NCBI RefSeq assembly: GCF_024700885.2
Contig: NZ_CP117016.1
Reading direction: 5' to 3' (one strand)
DNA from: Escherichia coli
GTDB lineage: Bacteria > Pseudomonadota > Gammaproteobacteria > Enterobacterales > Enterobacteriaceae
DNA length: 64,000 nt
Below are positions 2,368 through 16,235 of this stretch, piece after piece; within the stretch, counting starts at the first letter, position 1; each line of letters opens with the position of its first letter. The notes under the pieces are model-generated. The model was given only the letters and a program-made list of their open reading frames with translations, was not told the DNA's origin and did not search any database. A program made the position numbers and the translations under genes.

Positions 2368-5300
2368 ATGAGCGGAAAACCGGCGGCGCGTCAGGGCGAC
2401 ATGACGCAGTATGGCGGTAGCATTGTTCAGGGTTCAGCCGGGGTACGTATTGGTGCCCCCACCGGCGTGGCCTGTTCGGTGTGCCCCGGCGGGGTGACGT
2501 CCGGCCATCCGGTCAATCCGCTGCTCGGTGCGAAGGTCCTTCCCGGCGAAACCGACCTTGCCCTGCCCGGCCCGCTGCCGTTCATCCTCTCCCGCACCTA
2601 CAGCAGTTACCGGACAAAAACGCCCGCGCCGGTGGGGAGCCTCGGCCCCGGCTGGAAAATGCCCGCGGATATCCGCTTACAGCTGCGCGATAACACACTG
2701 ATACTCAGTGATAACGGCGGCAGGAGCCTGTATTTTGAGCACCTGTTTCCCGGTGAGGACGGTTACAGCCGCAGCGAGTCACTCTGGCTGGTGCGCGGCG
2801 GCGTGGCGAAACTGGATGAAGGTCACCGGCTGGCCGCACTCTGGCAGGCACTGCCGGAAGAGCTTCGCCTGAGTCCGCATCGTTATCTGGCGACGAACAG
2901 TCCGCAGGGGCCGTGGTGGGTACTCGGCTGGTGTGAGCAGGTGCCGGAGGCGGATGAGGTGCTGCCCGCGCCGCTGCCGCCGTACCGGGTACTGACCGGG
3001 CTGGTGGACCGCTTCGGGCGCACACAGACGTTTCACCGTGAGGCTGGCGGCGAAATCACCGGCGTGACGGATGGCGCAGGCCGTCACTTCCGGCTGGTAC
3101 TGACCACGCAGGCGCAGCGGGCAGAAGAAGCCCGGCAGCAGGCCATTTCCGGCGGGACGGAACCGTCCGCTTTTCCTGATACCCTGCCGGGTTACACCGA
3201 ATATGGCCGGGACAACGGCATCCGTCTGTCTGCCGTGTGGCTGACACACGACCCGGAATATCCGGACAACCTGCCAGCCGCGCCGCTGGTACGCTATGGC
3301 TGGACGCCGCGTGGCGAACTGGCGGCGGTGTATGACCGCAGCAATACACAGGTGCGCAGCTTTACTTACGATGATAAATACCGGGGCCGGATGGTGGCGC
3401 ACCGTCACACGGGCCGACCGGAAATCCGTTACCGTTACGACAGTGACGGGCGGGTGACAGAACAGCTAAACCCGGCGGGCTTAAGCTACACGTATCAGTA
3501 TGAGAAAGACCGCATCACCATCACCGACAGCCTGGACCGCCGTGAAGTCCTGCACACGCAGGGCGAAGGCGGGCTGAAGCGGGTGGTGAAAAAGGAACAC
3601 GCGGACGGCAGCGTCATGCAGAGTCAGTTTGACGCGGTGGGCAGGCTTAAGGCACAGACGGATGCCGCAGGCCGGACGACTGAGTACAGCCCGGATGTGG
3701 TGACGGGACTCATCACGCGCATCACCACACCGGATGGCAGGGCATCGGCATTTTACTATAACCACCACAACCAGTTAACGTCAGCCACCGGGACTGACGG
3801 GCTGGAGTTGCGCCGGGAATATGATGAATCCGGCCGTCTGATTCAGGAAACCGCACACAACGGCGATATCACCCGCTACCGTTATGATAATCCACACAGT
3901 GACTTACCCTGCGCAACGGAAGATGCCACCGGCAGCCGGAAAACCATGACATGGAGCCGTTACGGTCAGTTGCTGACCGTCACTGACTGTTCCGGTTATG
4001 TAACCCGTTATGACCATGACCGTTTTGGTCAGGTGACGGCGGTGCACCGCGAGGAAGGGCTGAGTCAGTACCGCGCATACGACAGCCGTGGACAGTTAAT
4101 TGCGGTGAAAGACACGCAGGGCCATGAAACGCGGTATGAATACAACGCCGCCGGTGACCTGACCGCCGTCATTGCCCCGGACGGCAGCAGAAACGGGACA
4201 CAGTACGATGCGTGGGGAAAGGCCATCCGTACCACGCAGGGCGGTCTGACGCGCAGTATGGAATACGATGCTGCCGGACGGGTCATCCGCCTGACCAGTG
4301 AAAACGGCAGCCACACCACCTTCCGTTACGATGTACTTGACCGGCTGATACAGGAAACCGGCTTTGACGGCCGCACACAGCGTTATCACCACGACCTGAC
4401 CGGCAAACTTATCCGCAGCGAGGATGAGGGGCTGGTCACCCACTGGCACTATGACGAAGCAGACCGCATCACGCACCGCACCGTGAAGGGTGAACCGGCA
4501 GAGCAGTGGCAGTATGATGAACGCGGCTGGCTGACACAAATCAGCCATCTCAGCGAAGGCCACCGGGTGACGGTGCATTACGGGTATGATGAGAAAGGCC
4601 GCCTGACCGGTGAGCGCCAGACGGTGCATCACCCGCAGACGGAAGCACTGCTCTGGCAGCATGAAACCAGACACGCTTACAACGCGCAGGGACTGGCGAA
4701 CCGCTGTATACCGGACAGCCTGCCCGCCGTGGAATGGCTGACTTACGGCAGCGGCTGGCTGGCAGGCATGAAACTCGGCGACACACCGCTGGTGGAGTAT
4801 ACCCGCGACCGCCTGCACCGGGAAACGCTGCGCAGCTTCGGCCGTTATGAACTCACCACCGCTTATACCTCTGCCGGGCAGTTACAGAGCCAGCACCTGA
4901 ACAGCCTGCAGTATGACCGCGATTACACCTGGAACGACAACGGCGAACTCATCCGCATCAGCAGCCCGCGACAGACCCGGAGTTACAGCTACAGCGACTC
5001 CGGCAGGCTGACCGGCGTCCACACCACCACCTCAAATCTGGATATCCGCATCCCGTATGCCACGGACCCGGCAGGCAACCGCCTGCCCGACCCGGAGCTG
5101 CACCCGGACATCACCCTCAGCATGTGGCCGGATAACCGTATCGCCCGTGACGCGCACTATCTTTACCGGTATGACCGTCACGGCAGACTGACGGAGAAAA
5201 CCGACCTCATCCCGGAAGGGGTTATCCGCACGGACGATGAGCGGACTCACCAGTACCATTACGACAGTCAGCACCGGCTGGTGCACTACACGCGGACACA

Positions 5301-6555
5301 ATATGCAGAGCCGCTGGTCGAAAGTCGCTATCTTTACGACCCGCTGGGCCGCAGGGTGGCAAAACGGGTATGGCGGCGTGAACGGGACCTGACGGGCTGG
5401 ATGTCGCTGTCACGGAAACCGGAAGTGACCTGGTACGGCTGGGACGGCGACCGGCTGACCACGATACAGAACGACAGAACCCGCATCCAGACGGTTTATC
5501 AGCCGGGGAGCTTCACGCCACTCATCAGAGTTGAAACCGCCACCGGTGAGCTGGCGAAAACGCAGCGCCGCAGCCTGGCGGATGCGCTTCAGCAGTCCGG
5601 CGGCGAAGACGGTGGCAGTGTGGTGTTCCCGCCGGTGCTGGTGCAGATGCTCGACCGGCTGGAAAGTGAAATCCTGGCTGACCGGGTGAGTGAGGAAAGC
5701 CGCCGCTGGCTGGCATCGTGCGGCCTGACGGTGGAGCAGATACAAAACCAGATGGACCCGGTGTACACGCCGGCGCGAAAAATCCACCTGTACCACTGCG
5801 ACCATCGCGGCCTGCCGCTGGCGCTTGTCAGCACGGAAGGGGCAACAGAATGGTGCGCAGAATACGATGAATGGGGCAACCTGCTGAATGAAGAGAACCC
5901 GCACCAGCTGCAGCAGCTCATCCGCCTGCCGGGTCAGCAGTATGATGAGGAGTCAGGCCTGTATTACAACCGCCACCGCTATTATGACCCGCTGCAGGGG
6001 CGGTATATCACTCAGGATCCGATTGGGCTGAAGGGGGGATGGAATTTTTATCAGTATCCGTTAAATCCGGTTCAGTATATAGATTCAATGGGACTGGCAT
6101 CTAAATATGGACACTTAAATAATGGCGGATATGGAGCGAGACCCAACAAACCGCCTACGCCCGATCCAAGTAAGTTGCCAGACATAGCGAAACAATTAAG
6201 ACTGCCATATCCTATTGACCAGGCCAGTAGTGCGCCTAATGTTTTCAAAACATTCTTCAGAGCATTAAGTCCTTACGATTACACACTGTATTGCAGGAAG
6301 TGGGTAAAACCCAATCTGACTTGTACGCCGCAGGATGATCCCCAGTATCCAGGGATGGAGACAAAGACAGCAAGTGATTACCTGCCACAGACAACTTGGC
6401 CAACAACTCAATTACCACCAGGATATACTTGTGCAGAACCCTATTTATTCCCAGACATTAATAAACCCGATGGGCCAGCAACAGCAGGGATAGATGATTT
6501 GGGTGAAATTTTAGCTAAAATGAAACAGAGAACATCGAGAGGAATAAGAAAATGA
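2368..6555 (+). CDS. rhsA: Rhs polymorphic toxin: PAAR-like N-terminus, YD-repeat core, variable C-terminal toxin tip
   Basis: 1395-aa ORF; N-terminal [17 protein letters not shown] (PAAR-like); many YD/RYxYD repeats; core ends with the DPIGL motif near nt 6016-6030, followed by an AT-rich ~175-codon tip of unrecognised family. Confidence 0.93.
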
Positions 6556-7121
6556 AAAGAGCTTTGTTCTTTTTGCTGATGATATTCGTTAGTTTTGGTG
6601 TTATAGCTAATTGCGAAACACAAGCTAAAGATCAAGATTGCTTTACCATTTTCACTAAGGGTACTATTTTTTCCGCGTTTCCTGTCTTAAATAATAAAAC
6701 CATGTGGAGATGGTATCAGAATGAGGACATAGGTGAGTATTATTGGCAAACAGAGCTTGGTATATGTAAAAATAACAAATTCACACCAAGCGGGGCGAGA
6801 CTCTTAATTCTCGTCGGATCACTACGCCTTAATGAAAATCATGCAACCAAAGGAACGTTGCAGGAGTTGCTAAATACAGCAGAAAAAACGGCGTTTCTCG
6901 GCGATCGGTTTAGAAGTTATATAAGAGCGGGTATCTATCAAAAAAAGAGCAGTGATCCAGCTCAGTTGTTGGCAGTCCTTGATAATTCAATCATGGTTAA
7001 ATATTTTAAAGATGAGAAGCCAACTTATGCTCGAATGACAGCACATCTCCCGAACAAAGATGAGTCTTACGAATGTTTAACAAAAGTACAGCATGAACTG
7101 CTTCGTAGTGAAGAAAAATAA
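6552..7121 (+). CDS. putative cognate Rhs immunity protein, secreted (N-terminal signal peptide)
   Basis: start codon overlaps the rhsA stop (ATGA at 6552-6555); GAGG RBS about 10 nt upstream; N-terminus [21 protein letters not shown] is signal-peptide-like; AT-rich like the rhsA tip. Confidence 0.6.
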
Positions 7122-7289
7122 AATCTCTTCCTGAGAAAATAAATTAACTATTCGAAAAAATATGTTCTTAATGGGTATCCAGGAACACCAGAAGGTCGAT
7201 TTGGAAAAATGGATTCCGATGGTAAGAATATCATATATTCTGAATGTAATGTTTTACCCACAACTTTTGAGATTCGATAGGTGTAGAGC

Positions 7290-7637
7290 ATGAGAAACTC
7301 ACTAATATTACTTATTATGATATTGTTTACAATATCACACTCAGTATTTGGAAAAGAAAATTCAGCGGAAATTTTAGTAAATAGTCGTGAAATGGCTTTG
7401 GAATTATCATATGTTTATATTAAATATATATACGGGAAAGAAAAAGCAGAATTTCAGAAACCATATAGTATTACAGATGACAATAATTGTTGGAAAATCG
7501 AGGGAAAACAACCGAAGACGTTAGGAGGAAATTTTACAATACTAATAGCGAAAAAAGATGGGCAAGCGTTGGATGTAATACACAAAATAATCCACTGTTC
7601 AGACGATTCAAATATTTTACCAAGGTGTGTTTCGTAA
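7290..7637 (+). CDS. small secreted hypothetical protein, possible orphan immunity protein
   Basis: 115-aa ORF with signal-peptide-like N-terminus MRNSLILLIMILFTISHSVFG; has a frameshifted paralog at 9240-9507; sits in the Rhs-associated AT-rich region. Confidence 0.5.
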   Translation: MRNSLILLIMILFTISHSVFGKENSAEILVNSREMALELSYVYIKYIYGKEKAEFQKPYSITDDNNCWKIEGKQPKTLGGNFTILIAKKDGQALDVIHKIIHCSDDSNILPRCVS

Positions 7638-7839
7638 CTATTTTGTGTACAATATGACTCTACATATCGACGAAAAAACCACTTGATTTGACAGGAACAC
7701 ATTCAAAAAAATTTCTTTTTCATTTCAGGAGCGATTTTCATCTGTTACTTGAAGTATCTGTGAGATTAAGTGACTCCCCCTAACGTCGTACTAAATAGTA
7801 ATTACTGGCCATACCGGGAGCAGTATTCGGCGCTTCCCA

Positions 7840-8080
7840 CATGCAGCAGAATAACCGCATCAGCGAAGATGTATTGTATTTTTACTATCACAATGTGTAC
7901 GGACGGTTTATGGAAAAGAATGAACATTAGATACGCGATGCGGCGGCAGGTTACACGGTTATCACTACGATAGCCAATACTGGCTGGTGCATTACCGCCG
8001 TGAACAATAGGACGCCGTACTGCTGGAAATTTCTTACCTTTATGACTCCCCGCGCCGCCGTATTGGGAAACGGGAAGCAA
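7840..8080 (+). pseudogene. decayed internal fragment of an Rhs core
   Basis: aligns by eye to rhsA nt ~5130-5370 (e.g. relic GYHYDSQYWLVHY and YLYDSPRRRIGKR vs rhs[14 protein letters not shown] and [13 protein letters not shown]); interrupted by stop codons; GC-rich patch inside an AT-rich region. Confidence 0.6.
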
Positions 8081-8654
8081 TCAAGATGAGGCTGATATAA
8101 TGTGCGGAATGCCTGAGTATTTTTAGAATAGGGGGGTAATATGTTTGATAGAATATATCTTGGTGATCGAGCAATAAAAAATTGAATTTGATTTATGGAG
8201 TAAACAAATTAGAATTCAGGTTAATTTAATCTCAAGGATAGCCTATGGTACAACAGAATGGAATTTTTATGATAATGAAGACTTAGAAGATGGTTATTTG
8301 GTATTTTCAGATGTTAGTTTCTTCAATATAACTCCTAATGGCTCTATTCCAGATGATTATATAATTTCAATAATTACAGATAATGTCAATGTTGAATATT
8401 TTGAATCAACTATAGTTGCTGTTGGTCAAATTCGAAACACAAATGTTGGTGACATTGATAATATTGGTGAATGTCAAATTTTCATCAGGTATAAAGACAG
8501 CTGGATTGAGAATAAACTCAAAGAAAAAATAATTGAATAACCATGTTATGTATAGACATTTTAGATGGAACGAACCAGAGGAAGGCATGCCTCCGACTTG
8601 GGTTATATGGGCACGGAGTTTTAGTGTAGTGAACTCAACGACGCAAACCGAATA

Positions 8655-8720
8655 ACCTGCCGCTGGCGCTTATCAGCACGTAAGGGACAACAGCGTAGTA
8701 CGTAGAATAATCCTACCCAC
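8655..8720 (+). pseudogene. short decayed relic of the Rhs core 3' end
   Basis: cctgccgctggcgcttatcagcacg is near-identical to rhsA 5811-5835 and to the yibJ copy at ~10669-10693; similarity decays downstream and is interrupted by stops. Confidence 0.5.
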
Positions 8721-8792
8721 GTAGTATGGACACAGGCCTAAGCGAGGTTCTGGTTTTCAAATTTTTCGGGAGTTAGATGATTGGAGGAACAG

Positions 8793-9158
8793 ATGATAAG
8801 AATCGCATTTTTAATAACCAATAAATTTCTTGAGATAGATAGTACCACTCTTGCTGGATATGATTTTAGCGGGATGAATCTACATCGTGCCACCCTCAAT
8901 GGTTATTGTCTTGATGGGGCGAAATTTGAAAAAACTCATTTAAGAAATGTAATGATTCAACATACATCAACTAGAAATGCTGTCTTTCGCAATGCGGCTC
9001 TGATGAATGCTATTCTGAATAACTCAGATTTCACTGGAAGTGATTGTAGTAATTCAAGGTCAATAGGTGAAAATTTTAAAGCAATAGATAATCATGGGAA
9101 AGATATAATAAATGGAAAAGGATTGCCTAATGTTTGCAAAATACATGACAACGTATAA
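8793..9158 (+). CDS. pentapeptide-repeat protein, hypothetical
   Basis: ORF with GGAGG RBS 5 nt upstream of ATG 8793 (the track ORF begins at an in-frame TTG at 8781); sequence shows pentapeptide-like periodicity (GMNLHRATLNGYCLDGAKFEKTHLRNV...AVFRNAALMNAILNNSDFTGSD). Confidence 0.5.
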   Translation: MIRIAFLITNKFLEIDSTTLAGYDFSGMNLHRATLNGYCLDGAKFEKTHLRNVMIQHTSTRNAVFRNAALMNAILNNSDFTGSDCSNSRSIGENFKAIDNHGKDIINGKGLPNVCKIHDNV

Positions 9159-9239
9159 GAAAATATTATTCAGAACCTATGTGATTGTATCTTTATTTTT
9201 ACATACAACACATGGGCGCAGTGTAATAATATTATTATA

Positions 9240-9507
9240 ATGCGCAAGTATGAAAGTGAGGGGAAATACACCGTTAGAAATTTGGTCAAAAATAAAGCTA
9301 TAGCATTGGAATTAGCTGAGATGTATGTTAAAAATCGTTATGGACATGATGCCGAAGAAGAAAAAAAAACCATACAAAATCATGGAATTACCAACAAGTT
9401 GGATTGTTGAAGGCACCATTGAATCAGACCAAATTGCTGGTAGGGTTTTTATTATAGAAATAGGCAAAAATGACGGGAGAATTCTAAATTTTGGCCACGG
9501 AAAATAA
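9240..9507 (+). pseudogene. frameshifted paralog of the 7290-7637 gene, interrupted in an A9 homopolymer
   Basis: frame A (9240-9410, MRKYESEGKYTVRNLVKNKAIALELAEMYVKNRYGHDAEEEKK) and frame B (9325-9507, ...PYKIMELPTSWIVEGTIESDQIAGRVFIIEIGKNDGRILNFGHGK) together align with the 7290 protein (SREMALELSYVYIKYIYGKEKAEFQKPYSITDDNNCWKIEG...ILIAKKDGQALDVIHKI); the frames meet at the A9 run 9361-9369; losing one A restores one ORF. Confidence 0.6.
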
Positions 9508-9611
9508 GTATGTAAGGATAAACAAACATCGTGTGTGCTGATGGCAGAGTAGGTGGAGGACTCCAGACAGTCAAACGATAGAAAAAGATAGTCTTTATGG
9601 AGGTTCCTGCA

Positions 9612-10454
9612 ATGTCGAATACATACCAGAAAAGAAAGGCAAGTAAAGAGTATGGTTTATACAATCAATGTAAGAAACTAAATGATGATGAATTATTTCG
9701 CTTACTTGATAATCGCAATTCATTGAAAAGGATTTCATCTGCCAGAGTATTGCAGCTAAGAGGTGGGCAAGACGCTGTTAGATTGGCAATTGAATTCTGC
9801 GCTGACAAAAATTATATCCGTAGAGATATAGGAGCATTTATACTCGGGCAAATAAAAGTTTGCAAAAAATGCGAAGATAGCGTTTTTAATATTTTAAAAA
9901 AGATGGCACTGAATGATAAAAGTGCTTGCGTTCGAGCTACAGCAATCGAGTCAACTGCTCAGCGATGCAAGAAAAACCCAATTTATTCACCTAAAATAGT
10001 AGAACAATCTCAAATTACTGCTTTTGATAAATCGGCTAATGTCAGACGTGCTACGGCATTTGCTATTTCTGTTATCAATGATAAAGAAACAATTCCACTA
10101 TTGATTAATCTGTTAAAAGATCCAAATGGAGATGTCAGAAACTGGGCCGCATTTGCAATAAATATCAATAAATATGATAATAGTGATATTAGGGATTATT
10201 TTGTGGAGATGCTTCAGGATAAAAATGAGGAAGTCCGTATTGAAGCAATAATCGGACTTTCCTACAGAAAAGATAAAAGGGTTTTATCTGTTTTATGCGA
10301 TGAGTTAAAAAAAAATACTGTTTATGATGATATCATTGAAGCTGCGGGTGAATTAGGTGATAAAACGCTACTTCCTGTTTTAGATACTATGTTGTACAAG
10401 TTTGATGACAATGAAATTATAACTTCCGTTATTGATAAGCTGAAGCGTTCATAG
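9612..10454 (+). CDS. yibA: HEAT-repeat protein
   Basis: N-terminus MSNTYQKRKASKEYGLYNQ at the internal ATG 9612 matches recalled YibA; repeated D/N-x-x-VR-x-x-A HEAT-like units; lies between Rhs modules. Confidence 0.8.
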   Translation: MSNTYQKRKASKEYGLYNQCKKLNDDELFRLLDNRNSLKRISSARVLQLRGGQDAVRLAIEFCADKNYIRRDIGAFILGQIKVCKKCEDSVFNILKKMALNDKSACVRATAIESTAQRCKKNPIYSPKIVEQSQITAFDKSANVRRATAFAISVINDKETIPLLINLLKDPNGDVRNWAAFAININKYDNSDIRDYFVEMLQDKNEEVRIEAIIGLSYRKDKRVLSVLCDELKKNTVYDDIIEAAGELGDKTLLPVLDTMLYKFDDNEIITSVIDKLKRS

Positions 10455-10495
10455 CGTGAGTTGCCTATGCACAGTGAGGTATTCCCGCCGGCACG

Positions 10496-11305
10496 GTGCA
10501 GATGCTCGACCGGCTGGAAAGTGAAATCCTGGCTGACCGGGTGAGTGAGGAAAGCCGACGCTGGCTGGCATCGTGCGGCCTGACGGTGGCGCAGATGCAA
10601 AACCAGATGGACCCGGTGTACACGCCGGCGCGAAAAATCCACCTGTACCACTGCGACCATCGCGGCCTGCCGCTGGTGCTTATCAGCACGGAAGGGGCAA
10701 CAGAATGGTGCGCAGAATACGATGAGTGGGGCAACCTGCTGAATGAAGAGAACCCGCACCAGCTGCAGGGGCGGTATATCACTCAGGATCCGATTGGACT
10801 GAAGGGGGGATGGAATTTTTATCAGTATCCGTTGAATCCGATAACTGATATTGACCCGTTGGGATTAGCGACCTGTTTATACAGCATAACTTTAGGTATG
10901 CTTTCATGCGTTTCAGATACGCCAAGTGATGATAATTCTTATGGTGTGCTTACTATTTCAGTCGCCTCTGGTAATAATGGTAATAATATGCAATGTAAAA
11001 ATAATCCTGGTTGTACACACTTACAAAATAGAGGCCCAATACCTCCAGGGGTATGGAGCTGGAATGTTAATGGTCCTGGAGCAACTAATAGAAAACCTAA
11101 TGGTATACGTTTAGTACCGTCAGCAAATACAGAAACGTATAATCGTGATGGATTTTTAACACATAGTTGTTTAAACGCTTTTGGTCCATCTTTAGGACCT
11201 CGATTCTGTTCCGAGGGTTGTATAACTGGTTCATCTAATGACATGCAAAAATTAAATGAGCTAATATTTTCAGAGCCAGATAGCACATTAACAGTGACGG
11301 ACTAG
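10496..11305 (+). CDS. yibJ: orphan Rhs C-terminal fragment (3' core plus alternative toxin tip) with L,D-transpeptidase-like motif
   Basis: nt ~10472-10840 are near-identical to the rhsA 3' core (5616-6070) including [18 protein letters not shown]; the tip then diverges; tip contains H-S-x14-S-E-G-C-I-T (His codon 11162-11164, Cys codon 11219-11221); symbol is positional only. Confidence 0.7.
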
Positions 11306-11309
11306 AAAT

Positions 11310-11705
11310 ATGGCAAGGTTATTAACAATTGTGCTTTTTTTCTCTATTTCTGCGAATGCAGTTACTGTAAACCAATTTCAGAGAGAGTTGGATTTGGCAG
11401 ACAAGGCAATATTATGGGCACTAATATCAGCCAGTACCCAAGAGGGACGAAAAGCGTGTTCACTTAGCTATTTTTCATGTAAAGCCGCAGAGGCTGAACT
11501 CGGACTGGCATATATGGCTGCTAATGATAACAAGGCATTTCTCACATCCTTATCTAGAATAATGATGTACAAAATAGATGCTGGACTTTCCGAATCCTAT
11601 ACATGCTATTTATTAAGCAAGGGAAAGATCATAAGACCATATCTGAAGAATCTAAATCCACACCAACTTGTCGCTGATTGCATTGAAACTGTAAATAAAA
11701 GATAA
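11310..11705 (+). CDS. putative immunity protein for the orphan Rhs tip, secreted
   Basis: starts 4 nt after the yibJ stop; N-terminus MARLLTIVLFFSISANA is signal-peptide-like; AT-rich. Confidence 0.55.
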   Translation: MARLLTIVLFFSISANAVTVNQFQRELDLADKAILWALISASTQEGRKACSLSYFSCKAAEAELGLAYMAANDNKAFLTSLSRIMMYKIDAGLSESYTCYLLSKGKIIRPYLKNLNPHQLVADCIETVNKR

Positions 11706-12283
11706 AAATAAAAAAATCATTGATATAGATTCAGTTAATATTTGCAATGATAATAAAAATATAAATTGGAGAGTTAATAGTACTATTGTAGCCATTGATG
11801 ATTCTATAAAATGCATCGATGAATAATAACTTAATTATATTTAAAAATATATTAATGACTCACTCTCCAGGAGTTTTTTAACTTAGTGTTATAATGAATA
11901 CGATAATTAAAAGTGAAGAGAAAAATAGTTGTATACATATATTACATGAACCTACATTGTGATCTATAAATTAAATATTTTTAAATGTGACTGTCATCCT
12001 TCAGATAATAAAGCCATCATCGCAATAGATGGAAAAGCACTCCTGCTCTTTTTTGATTAGAGCCGTGGCAGAGGAACAACTCATATCATCATTGCGATCT
12101 CGACAATGTATGGTCTGATCCTTCGGCAGATCAAGACGGATAAAAAATCCAATGAGTTCACACTCATCCCGAACTTCTTAACATAATGGATATTAACGAA
12201 AAATCATCGCAGCCAATGAAGTAATATGCAAAAATAATTAGTCCTTACAGGGAGCAAAGTTCCATAATCTCCCCCTTCCCTAC

Positions 12284-13420
12284 TCAATGATCCAAATAAA
12301 GATAATGCATCCAACTGGTCATTCTCAGCAGCACCTTCCGCATCACCGAAACATGGCTGAAATGGTCGGAGTAAACTGCCACCTGGGCGTAGATGCCGTC
12401 GGGTAAGGCATCGATATCAGCGTTAGGGTCCAGTTCAATGGTTCCCAGCACACCGTCCGTGCCGGGCACGACCGTTAATGATTGCAATACCCCCTGCGCC
12501 TGATAAGAACCGCCTGGCACGACAGGTAAAATACTGGTCAGTTTGCCGTGGAACACCTGCCCAGGTAGCGCGTTAAACACCACTTCCGCATCATCGCCGG
12601 GTTTCAGACGTAACAGCGAGTTTTGCCGAAATTGGGCGACAATTTGCCGTTTTTGCTCGGGGATGAAAACCATCACCGGACGCAACGGCAAGGCAGCTGC
12701 GTATGTACCTGGGCGGATCAGTACCTGAGTAACGTAGCCATTGCTCGGCGCGCGAATGACAGTCTGCTCAAGGTTATATTTTGCTTCAGTAAGTTGCGCT
12801 CTTAAGCTCACAATCTGCGATTGCTCGCCGTTAACCATACTATCGAGCTGGCTCTGGATCTGCGCCTGCTCCGCCACCGAGCCTTTCACCAGCGCATCCT
12901 GCGCGAGGAAATTTTGCCGCGCATCGTCGATGTCACGTTCCGAGAACGGATTCACCGCCGCCTGGCTGCCTTTCAGATAACGTTGATAATTATTAAACAG
13001 ACGGTCGCGCTCCGCTGAAACCTGGGTGGTGTTGGCCTGCGCTTCAGTGAGCTGCGCGCGCAGCGTCTTTATATTATGCGTCGCCGTCATCAGGTCAGCC
13101 TGAAGTCTGTCAACTCGCGCCTGGTAACGAACCGGGTCGAGCTTAAAAAGCACCTCGCCCTTTTGAATAAGCTGATTATTCTTGTCAGTGACTTCAGTAA
13201 CAATTCCCGTCACCTGTGGCGTGATGGGGATCGCAATCACTGCCTTTTGCGCGGTAAAAGTGTAAGGGTGGTTGTAGTTCATCAACAAAATCAAACCACT
13301 CACCAGAAACACGCCTCCCAGCGCCGCCGTCGCCAGCGTCCACTGATTTACCGGAATGCGGAAGATTTTAAAGACCGCCCACGCCAGCGCCACGTAAGTT
13401 AAAACAATCAATAGATCCAT
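12284..13420 (-). CDS. yibH: HlyD-family membrane fusion-like protein
   Basis: 378-aa ORF with N-terminal TM segment and long coiled-coil region; position upstream of mtlA. Confidence 0.8.
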
Positions 13421-13422
13421 AT

Positions 13423-13785
13423 TTAGATCTCCGGGAACGTGGAATAGTCAGTCTTTTTCTCGGCGGCGAGTTGATGCTCCAGCCGGGAAATTCGGTCAGA
13501 AAGTGCGGCGATTTCCGGGTCAGCCGCTTTCTCCTGCGACGCAACATGTGACTGCATACCCCAGCCACGCTCCGGTTGATAGAGCGTCGCCCAGATCCAC
13601 AGAAACGGCCAGATAACATGCAGAGTAAACAGGCTCACCCAGCCCGCCGTATGAATAGCGTCGGCATGGGGATGGTTGCGCTTTTTGGCAATCAGATAAG
13701 GGATGTCATGTATCGCGATGATTCCATAAAAAATCACCAGAAAGACGAAGATCAGCACTCCCAACGCGAAATAGTTTAGAAACAT
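13423..13785 (-). CDS. yibI: small inner membrane protein (DUF3302-like)
   Basis: 120-aa ORF with two hydrophobic segments; 2-nt gap downstream of it to yibH, co-oriented. Confidence 0.75.
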
Positions 13786-14001
13786 ATCTGCCTCGGATTC
13801 ACGTTTATCGGTGTTGTTTTTTGGCTGGCAGCCAGAAGGGAGTCAGGCTGATATTTTGACAATAATTCGGGTTCGCGATTCTCGCCATAACACCAAAGAA
13901 TAATTTTTAGAGGTGATGAGTTGCTTAGTTACATAACGATTTTATGACGAAGGCATAACATGCTGCAGATCACATCAGGTGAACGCCGTAAGAAAATATC
14001 T

Positions 14002-14178
14002 TGTGATTCAGATCACAAAGATTCAACAAACTAACAAAACAAAAATGTGACATTACTCACATTTAAATGCCATTTTTAGCGAAAATCGCCGCCTTGTTGC
14101 TTTTTTACACAGTCGTTTTGTGATGAGCATCACGTCAATTACCTCTCTACCCCCTATATTTATGTGACTGATATCACA
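14002..14178 (+). promoter_or_regulatory. mtlA regulatory region with four CRP-like palindromes (TGTGA-N6-TCACA)
   Basis: tgtgattcagatcaca 14002-14017; tgtgacattactcaca 14046-14061; tgtgatgagcatcacg 14119-14134; tgtgactgatatcaca 14163-14178; all upstream of mtlA ATG 14322. Confidence 0.75.
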
Positions 14179-14321
14179 CAAAAGGCCGTCGACTGGACAG
14201 TTAACCGATTCAGTGCCAGATTTCGCAGTATCTACAAGGTCCGGCTACCTCTGCCGCCACATTAACAAAAAACCTCGGGCTTCCAGCCTGCGCGACAGCA
14301 AACATAAGAAGGGGTGTTTTT

Positions 14322-16235
14322 ATGTCATCCGATATTAAGATCAAAGTGCAAAGCTTTGGTCGTTTCCTCAGCAACATGGTGATGCCAAATATCGGCGCGT
14401 TTATCGCGTGGGGTATCATCACCGCGTTATTTATTCCAACAGGGTGGTTACCGAACGAAACGCTGGCGAAGCTGGTCGGGCCAATGATCACTTATCTCCT
14501 GCCGCTGCTGATCGGTTATACCGGTGGTAAGCTGGTAGGCGGCGAACGTGGCGGTGTAGTCGGTGCCATCACCACCATGGGCGTTATCGTCGGCGCAGAT
14601 ATGCCAATGTTCCTTGGTTCTATGATTGCAGGTCCGCTGGGCGGCTGGTGCATTAAGCACTTCGACCGCTGGGTAGACGGTAAGATCAAATCCGGTTTTG
14701 AGATGCTGGTGAATAACTTCTCCGCAGGCATCATCGGGATGATCCTCGCTATTCTGGCATTCCTCGGCATTGGCCCGATTGTTGAAGCCCTGTCCAAAAT
14801 GCTGGCTGCGGGCGTTAACTTCATGGTTGTCCATGACATGCTGCCGCTGGCGTCTATCTTTGTTGAACCGGCGAAAATCCTGTTCCTCAACAACGCCATT
14901 AACCACGGTATCTTCTCGCCGCTGGGTATTCAGCAGTCCCATGAACTGGGTAAATCCATCTTCTTCCTGATTGAAGCTAACCCAGGTCCGGGTATGGGCG
15001 TGCTGCTGGCGTACATGTTCTTTGGTCGTGGTAGCGCTAAACAGTCTGCGGGCGGTGCGGCAATCATCCACTTCCTGGGCGGTATCCACGAAATCTACTT
15101 CCCGTATGTGCTGATGAATCCGCGTCTGATTCTGGCCGTTATCCTCGGTGGTATGACTGGCGTGTTCACGCTGACTATCCTGGGCGGTGGTCTGGTTTCT
15201 CCGGCATCTCCGGGTTCTATCCTTGCTGTACTGGCGATGACACCAAAAGGTGCTTATTTCGCTAACATCGCGGGTGTGTGTGCGGCGATGGCTGTCTCCT
15301 TCGTTGTCTCTGCTATTTTGCTGAAAACCAGCAAAGTGAAAGAAGAAGATGATATTGAAGCAGCAACTCGTCGTATGCAGGACATGAAAGCTGAGTCTAA
15401 AGGTGCGTCTCCGCTGTCTGCGGGCGATGTGACTAACGACCTGAGCCACGTACGTAAAATCATCGTTGCCTGTGATGCCGGTATGGGTTCCAGTGCAATG
15501 GGCGCAGGCGTGCTGCGTAAGAAAATTCAGGATGCAGGTCTGTCGCAGATTTCTGTTACTAACAGCGCGATCAACAACCTGCCGCCAGATGTGGACCTGG
15601 TCATCACTCACCGTGACCTGACCGAACGCGCTATGCGCCAGGTTCCGCAGGCACAGCATATTTCGCTGACCAACTTCCTCGACAGCGGCTTGTACACCAG
15701 CCTGACCGAACGTCTGGTTGCTGCCCAGCGCCATACTGAAAACGAAGTGAAAGTGAAAGACAGTCTGAAAGACAGCTTTGACGATTCCAATGCTAACCTG
15801 TTCAAGCTAGGCGCGGAGAACATCTTCCTCGGTCGCAAAGCGGCCACCAAAGAAGAAGCGATTCGTTTTGCTGGCGAGCAACTGGTGAAAGGCGGTTACG
15901 TTGAGCCGGAATACGTTCAGGCGATGCTGGATCGTGAAAAACTGACCCCGACTTATCTGGGTGAGTCTATCGCGGTGCCACACGGTACGGTTGAAGCGAA
16001 AGATCGCGTACTGAAAACGGGCGTGGTGTTCTGCCAGTACCCGGAAGGCGTGCGCTTCGGTGAAGAAGAAGATGACATTGCCCGTCTGGTGATTGGTATT
16101 GCTGCCCGTAACAACGAGCACATTCAGGTTATCACCAGCCTGACCAATGCACTGGATGATGAATCCGTCATCGAGCGTCTGGCACACACCACCAGCGTGG
16201 ATGAAGTGCTGGAACTGCTGGCAGGTCGTAAGTAA
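14322..16235 (+). CDS. mtlA: PTS mannitol-specific EIICBA component
   Basis: 637-aa ORF, N-terminus [31 protein letters not shown] matches recalled MtlA; full length. Confidence 0.97.

Follow-up and report, generated by a model that had tools for sequence, protein, structure and literature searches.

Genomic context of the AT-rich interval

The DNA analysed here is a stretch of 64,000 nucleotides from Escherichia coli (contig NZ_CP117016.1), hereafter the window, and the interval under study covers its positions 11706-12283. This 578 bp gap has a GC content of 30.8%, against 49.1% across the whole window, and its opening 283 bp reach just 20-21% GC. It is flanked on the left by a 131-codon plus-strand immunity ORF that ends at 11705, and on the right by yibH (12284-13420, minus strand), which encodes an HlyD-family protein of 378 aa and is convergent with the immunity gene. 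The longest ORF lying wholly within the gap has 33 codons, and a 54-codon minus-strand ORF (11652-11816) spans its left edge. Nine ORFs of at least 20 codons were counted, compared with 7.0 +/- 1.9 in dinucleotide shuffles; the mean longest ORF of these shuffles was 50 codons and 93% of them held an ORF of at least 33 codons, so that the ORF content of the gap is within chance expectation. The AT-rich, ORF-poor gap described in the original prediction is real, and both its position and its description are correct.

The gap forms the right-hand end of the RhsA island, which in E. coli is inserted between yibF and yibH; an rhs locus between these two genes was listed by Jackson et al. 2009 (PMC2935791). 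In K-12 MG1655, the corresponding segment aligns with the window at 96% identity. The up-to-date K-12 RefSeq annotation places there yibV, encoding a PF15596 family protein, followed by the pseudogene yibU and by yibH, and neither an sRNA nor a small protein is annotated at this locus. The 1,395 bp around the gap (11306-12700) are found at 100% identity in at least 24 E. coli genomes among the matches listed, and at least 80% of their length is covered in 3,665 of 5,426 E. coli genomes. The junction between island and core lies at 12282/12283, one base outside the yibH stop codon, and genomes devoid of RhsA match the window only beyond it. Indeed, about 1,700 E. coli genomes align with the window only from 12283 or 12284 on, and in the RhsA-less strain ZH063, in which yibF and yibH have the same orientation and are 70 bp apart, homology to the window begins with CTCAATG, the first base of which corresponds to 12283. 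Given this break of homology in RhsA-less strains, the whole gap is island DNA. On the core side, the yibH stop codon occupies 12284-12286 and its start is at 13420, with yibI (13423-13785) preceding it by 2 bp; compared with K-12, yibH shows a dN of 0.002, a dS of 0.058 and a pS of 0.055.

On the island side, rhsA (2368-6555) is followed by a succession of small genes and pseudogenes of the immunity type (6556-10460), which according to the annotation of strain elppa4, whose demonstrated identity to the window is confined to 11306-12700, include NTF2-fold immunity genes, fragments with pentapeptide repeats, DUF6258 and the HEAT-repeat gene yibA; the GC content of this region is 37.5%, against 59.6% for the rhsA core. 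Next comes an orphan Rhs tip (10496-11305), in which a GC-rich end of the Rhs core (55-62% GC) precedes an AT-rich toxin domain. The ORF bears the DPIGL...DPLGL motif of the Rhs core end, is annotated as a "tlde1 domain-containing protein" in elppa4 and ends 4 bp upstream of the immunity gene. The latter, a member of the Imm57 family, is therefore found directly downstream of a polymorphic-toxin module, and the two form a putative toxin/immunity pair.

A frameshifted Imm57-family immunity gene at the left of the gap

The Imm57-family (yibV-type) immunity gene is a frameshifted pseudogene spanning 11310-11826 on the plus strand, of which 11310-11705 is open (131 aa) and the remainder, 11706-11826, lies within the gap. 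In strain elppa4, which equals the window exactly over 11306-12700 (the range to which the identity applies), the equivalent of 11310-11826 is annotated by PGAP as "Imm57 family immunity protein, frameshifted"; by the PGAP criteria, the "orphan immunity gene" of this strain is thus a truncated pseudogene. Residues 30-127 of the open part match Pfam PF15596 (model positions 2-100 of 100) with an E-value of 1.4e-44 and a score of 150.7 bits, against a cut-off of 25. The complete domain sits to the left of the gap, and the gap holds the post-domain tail alone. The N-terminus of the protein is signal-peptide-like, which would fit a toxin acting in the periplasm.

Intact Imm57 genes (522 bp, 173 aa) are annotated in B1.H1.39 and EcE.ESBL.COL, and a protein search retrieved a 542-member cluster of 173-aa proteins. 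In an alignment of nine genomes, including the window, K-12, B1.H1.39, EcE.ESBL.COL, 361 and TW10690, the window alone lacks the bases AAATA, one copy of a short direct repeat, at plus-strand position 11692/11693, and its gene measures 517 bp against 522 bp for the intact form. This 5-bp deletion shifts the reading frame and therefore leads to the premature stop at 11703-11705. The full-length frame of 173 aa is not kept in the window: the open part ends after 131 aa, and a further 40 codons are out of frame. The out-of-frame tail (11706-11826, plus strand) can be read in frame 2 as ...KKIIDIDSVNICNDNKNINWRVNSTIVAIDDSIKCIDE*, with its stop codon at 11824-11826. It aligns to the very C-terminus of a 175-aa homologue (55% identical) and, being conserved there, is a genuine part of the Imm57 protein. 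Where the gene is intact, the immunity ORF extends to 11826 and the true intergenic distance is therefore 457 bp; part of the apparent length of the gap is due to the frameshift of the immunity gene.

The tail also contains an A7 tract (11710-11716), which is an indel hot spot and is represented by A8 in K-12 and by A6 in strain 361. Poly-A slippage as a way of restoring full-length Imm57 in the window was considered and rejected, the stop at 11703-11705 being upstream of this tract. Furthermore, the K-12-type haplotype carries a 1-bp deletion in the region encoding the signal peptide (indel site 11334). Imm57 is intact in two of the nine sampled genomes, and the alignment indicates that it has been inactivated independently at least four times in E. 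coli, namely by the 5-bp deletion, by the 1-bp deletion, by A7->A8 and by A7->A6.

The K-12 gene yibV (b4615) is the ortholog of the window gene, likewise an orphan PF15596/Imm57 gene beside RhsA orphan toxin tips, and in both the C-terminal tail has been lost by frameshift. The lesions differ, however: K-12 yibV combines the 1-bp deletion in the signal-peptide region with A7->A8, whereas the window carries the 5-bp deletion at 11692/11693. The window gene keeps its N-terminus and an ORF of 131 aa, while K-12 YibV has 111 aa.

A relic of an ISAs1/ISEc1 element at the right of the gap

A fragment of an ISAs1-family (ISEc1/H-repeat) transposase, corresponding to codons ~95-171 of 378, is present on the plus strand at 11987-12211. 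Indeed, (i) this segment shares 75-79% identity with ydcC/ISEc1 genes in blastn searches (best 78.9%), (ii) in a tblastn search with YdcC, 56% identity was found over residues 96-159 (E 1e-21), with residues 156-167 aligning in another frame, and (iii) the NCBIfam model transpos_ISAs1 was matched over its positions 69-133 of 314 with an E-value of 9.4e-12 and a score of 44.7 bits; that this score falls short of the 70-bit cut-off is explained by the partial coverage of the model, 65 of 314 positions. A weak match to Pfam DDE_Tnp_1 (E 0.0043) was also obtained. The segment is homologous to the ISAs1 DDE transposase, and it is damaged: an in-frame TAG occurs at 12058-12060, a frameshift is located near 12170, and the region of the second catalytic Asp (...TTDAMG... 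in YdcC) reads as degenerate in the translations. The complete transposase ORF of ~378 aa is absent, with only codons ~95-171 and ~370-378 remaining.

The latter codons belong to a second block (12240-12276, plus strand) that was aligned to the end of ISEc1, in the orientation of the first block and collinear with it. This block of 37 aligned bases, 27 of which are identical (73%), spans the last nine codons or so of ISEc1, the stop codon (TAA, 12265-12267) and the next nine bases, and 8 of 500 shuffles scored as well against the whole IS. Since other E. coli ISEc1 copies cease to match at that same point, the block probably represents the 3' end of ISEc1 with its right terminus. Approximately 600 bp of ISEc1 sequence are deleted between 12211 and 12240, and nothing corresponds to the left ~390 bp of the IS, the spacer upstream of the transposase fragment being without similarity to ISEc1. 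The element does not have both termini and is a relic, not a mobile member of the ISAs1 family. Its dead right terminus is located 6 bp from the junction between the RhsA island and the core.

H-repeats are classic Rhs-associated elements. Intact copies of H-repeat/ISEc1 (ydcC, yhhI) belong to the same IS family as the relic and are likewise located at the downstream end of Rhs islands; they encode a 378-aa transposase, whereas the relic retains ~20% of the gene and the right terminus, at 72-79% nucleotide identity, and has lost its left end. Rhs tips carrying H-repeats were also described in the E. coli W genome paper (PMC3032704). At the orthologous position in K-12, yibU (b4652; K-12 3769948-3770146, equivalent to window 11989-12186) is, like the window relic, an internal fragment of an ISAs1/ISEc1 transposase with stops and frameshifts. 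The two differ by 14 substitutions, and the frame of the window fragment is continuous over a longer distance (codons 96-159) because the extra G found in K-12 at ~12070 is absent. The annotation of yibU ends at the equivalent of 12186, whereas homology in the window could be traced to 12211 and in the detached block at 12240-12276. It had been proposed that the gap could hold further decayed Rhs-associated ORFs, and this is borne out by the frameshifted 3' tail of Imm57 and by the ISAs1/H-repeat transposase relic. The interval is "empty" only in appearance, and consists of relic DNA made up of two decaying genes and a short spacer.

The spacer, RNA features and divergence of the gap

The spacer that separates the two decaying genes (11827-11988, 162 bp) has a GC content of 20% (0.204) and no detectable coding or IS homology. 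Of 5,426 E. coli genomes, 3,699 carry a single copy of it, at this locus every time, and no second origin was found for it in searches against ISEc1, the rest of the window, genuine plasmids and other parts of E. coli genomes. On the plus strand, a weak hairpin (7 pairs, -4.1 kcal/mol in the centroid structure) followed by T6 is predicted at 11857-11879, with the hairpin itself at 11857-11875, 30-50 nt past the ancestral Imm57 stop. It was missed by the terminator scan, and could possibly act as a weak terminator of the orphan toxin/immunity transcript.

Searches with the Rfam 15 covariance models over 10500-14400 on both strands gave 0 matches at E<=1, and the scan for intrinsic terminators returned no site on either strand of 11706-12283. 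The hairpin after the yibH stop is weak (6-bp stem, 14-nt loop, z -1.07), and folding of four candidate segments gave z-scores between -1.07 and +0.65. In a sliding structure scan of both strands, 21 of 26 windows had z-scores from -1.9 to +1.7, the other five ranging from -2.1 to -2.5. The lowest values of the scan (about -2.5) fall on two inverted repeats at the DNA level. One (11766-11774/11862-11870) brackets the ancestral Imm57 stop and has a z-score of about -2.3 on both strands; the other, in 12013-12100, has z-scores of about -1.8 to -2.7 on both strands. Both are probably due to chance, such values being unremarkable among 26 windows.

The end of the island exists as two haplotypes that are ~6% diverged, one of the window/B1.H1.39/EcE.ESBL.COL type and one of the K-12 type. 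When the window is compared with K-12-type genomes, the spacer is 5.0% diverged, the IS fragment 5.2-6.0% and the gap as a whole ~6%; essentially two haplotypes are compared, with 8-14 substitutions per segment, and the power of the test is limited. The value for the whole gap equals the synonymous divergence of yibH (dS 0.058), and the gap therefore shows no sign of constraint; the comparative alignment that had been proposed as a check for conservation speaks against it, with divergence at about the synonymous rate. The dS of Imm57 between the two haplotypes is ~0.14, more than twice that of yibH, which suggests an older split or recombination at the edge of the island.

Alternative readings of the gap

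A consensus scan of the spacer revealed a plus-strand promoter-like element, TTAACT...GATAAT (11878-11907), which faces the IS relic and, beyond it, the 3' end of yibH, and an overlapping extended -10 motif, TGTTATAAT, at 11887-11895. This promoter could be active and produce a non-coding transcript across the dead IS, ending near a T6 run at 12049-12054 (~150 nt) or reading on into yibH from its 3' end, antisense to the gene; it would then modulate yibIH through convergent transcription or antisense pairing. The promoter-like hexamers and the good extended -10 are consistent with such activity, and the -10 hexamer TATAAT is kept in all nine aligned genomes. Moreover, a genomic-SELEX site, bound in vitro by the σ70 holoenzyme, was reported between yibV and yibU in K-12 by Shimada et al. 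2014 (PMC3946193), with the identical hexamers TTAACT/GATAAT. In view of this site and of TGTTATAAT, some transcription from the spacer is plausible. Against an active promoter, promoter-like matches are no commoner in the region than in shuffles (6 versus 5.1 +/- 2.3), and the common K-12-type haplotype has TT in place of the TG of the extended -10. In addition, neither a canonical terminator downstream nor an Rfam family was found, and divergence is at the neutral rate. The parts of the supplements of Adams et al. 2021 that were available (Term-seq 3'-end map) likewise hold no entries for yibU, yibV or yibH.

On balance, an active spacer promoter with a non-coding transcript is unlikely. Spurious binding sites for RNA polymerase abound in acquired AT-rich DNA, and the promoter-like element is presumably an incidental site of this kind. 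Of the promoter prediction suggested for the gap, the consensus match at 11878-11907 stands, while the number of matches does not exceed that in shuffles. It is very unlikely that, as a more specific proposal would have it, transcription from the spacer promoter crosses the ISEc1 relic and reaches the 3' end of yibH in RhsA-plus strains (about two thirds of E. coli). If true, the core yibIH operon would be under convergent or antisense control by the island in these strains, and free of it where yibF directly follows yibH.

The hydrophobic 28-codon minus-strand ORF quoted in the original prediction is present, with the exact sequence, at 12081-12167, and could encode a small hydrophobic protein of the membrane type. 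It starts with ATG and is open in eight of the nine sampled genomes, the exception being TW10690, in which it is destroyed by a 1-bp deletion. On the other hand, the ORF lies antisense within the transposase relic, whose sense frame explains the sequence, and shuffles of the gap yield short ORFs in comparable number and of comparable length. Between the two haplotypes, 4 of the 28 residues differ (P19L and N4L among them), and five of the seven nucleotide changes were counted as non-synonymous. Searches of Pfam and NCBIfam gave no family match for the 28-aa product, and K-12 has no small-protein gene annotated here. The ORF does not show the conservation under purifying selection that would be expected of a small membrane protein gene. 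A protein-coding role is scarcely credible, and the ORF owes its existence to chance. The suggestion that the gap could hold a small protein or an sRNA accordingly finds no support, given the absence of Rfam matches and of a terminator in the scans, the neutral divergence, the broken ORF and the lack of such a gene in the K-12 annotation.

Finally, the probability that the gap carries the promoter or a regulatory region of yibH, as had been envisaged on the basis of adjacency and nothing else, is practically nil: the stop and not the start of the minus-strand yibH faces the gap, which is its 3' flank; yibH lies downstream of yibI, so its promoter must sit beyond 13785, on the mtlA side; and ~1,700 E. 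coli genomes keep yibIH without any of the gap.

Proposed origin and significance

The gap, which forms the distal edge of the RhsA island, is with high probability decaying relic DNA devoid of function. Arrays of orphan Rhs C-terminal tips and immunity genes arise by C-terminal displacement, as described by Jackson et al. 2009 (PMC2935791). The region studied here resembles these arrays: it is likewise located downstream of rhsA at yibF-yibH, its distal cassettes are progressively decayed, and an orphan tlde1-domain tip and Imm57 lie directly left of the gap. It shows no qualitative difference from them and is an ordinary example.

In the proposed scenario, C-terminal displacement would have pushed older orphan toxin/immunity cassettes and H-repeats downstream, where they would erode (PMC2935791; PMC3032704). 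The last ~40 codons of the orphan Imm57 gene were thrown out of frame by the 5-bp deletion of this lineage, and the 162-bp spacer of 20% GC would have been inherited along with the Imm57 cassette. The ISAs1/ISEc1 element is devoid of its left end (~390 bp) and of ~600 bp from its interior, and its probable right terminus abuts the yibH stop. The gap drifts at the synonymous rate and gathers indels in homopolymer tracts. Presumably no product is made from it, and its sole role is likely positional, as the convergent 3' flank of the plus-strand toxin/immunity pair and of the minus-strand yibIH.

In summary, two decaying genes and a spacer together explain the whole gap. Both of its gene components were already in public annotation, yibU in K-12 and the frameshifted Imm57 by PGAP, and the present analysis makes two minor additions, namely the detached IS right end at the edge of the island and the recurrent independent inactivation of Imm57. 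The importance of these observations is small beyond annotation hygiene; the repeated loss of Imm57 illustrates relaxed selection on the distal orphan cassettes.
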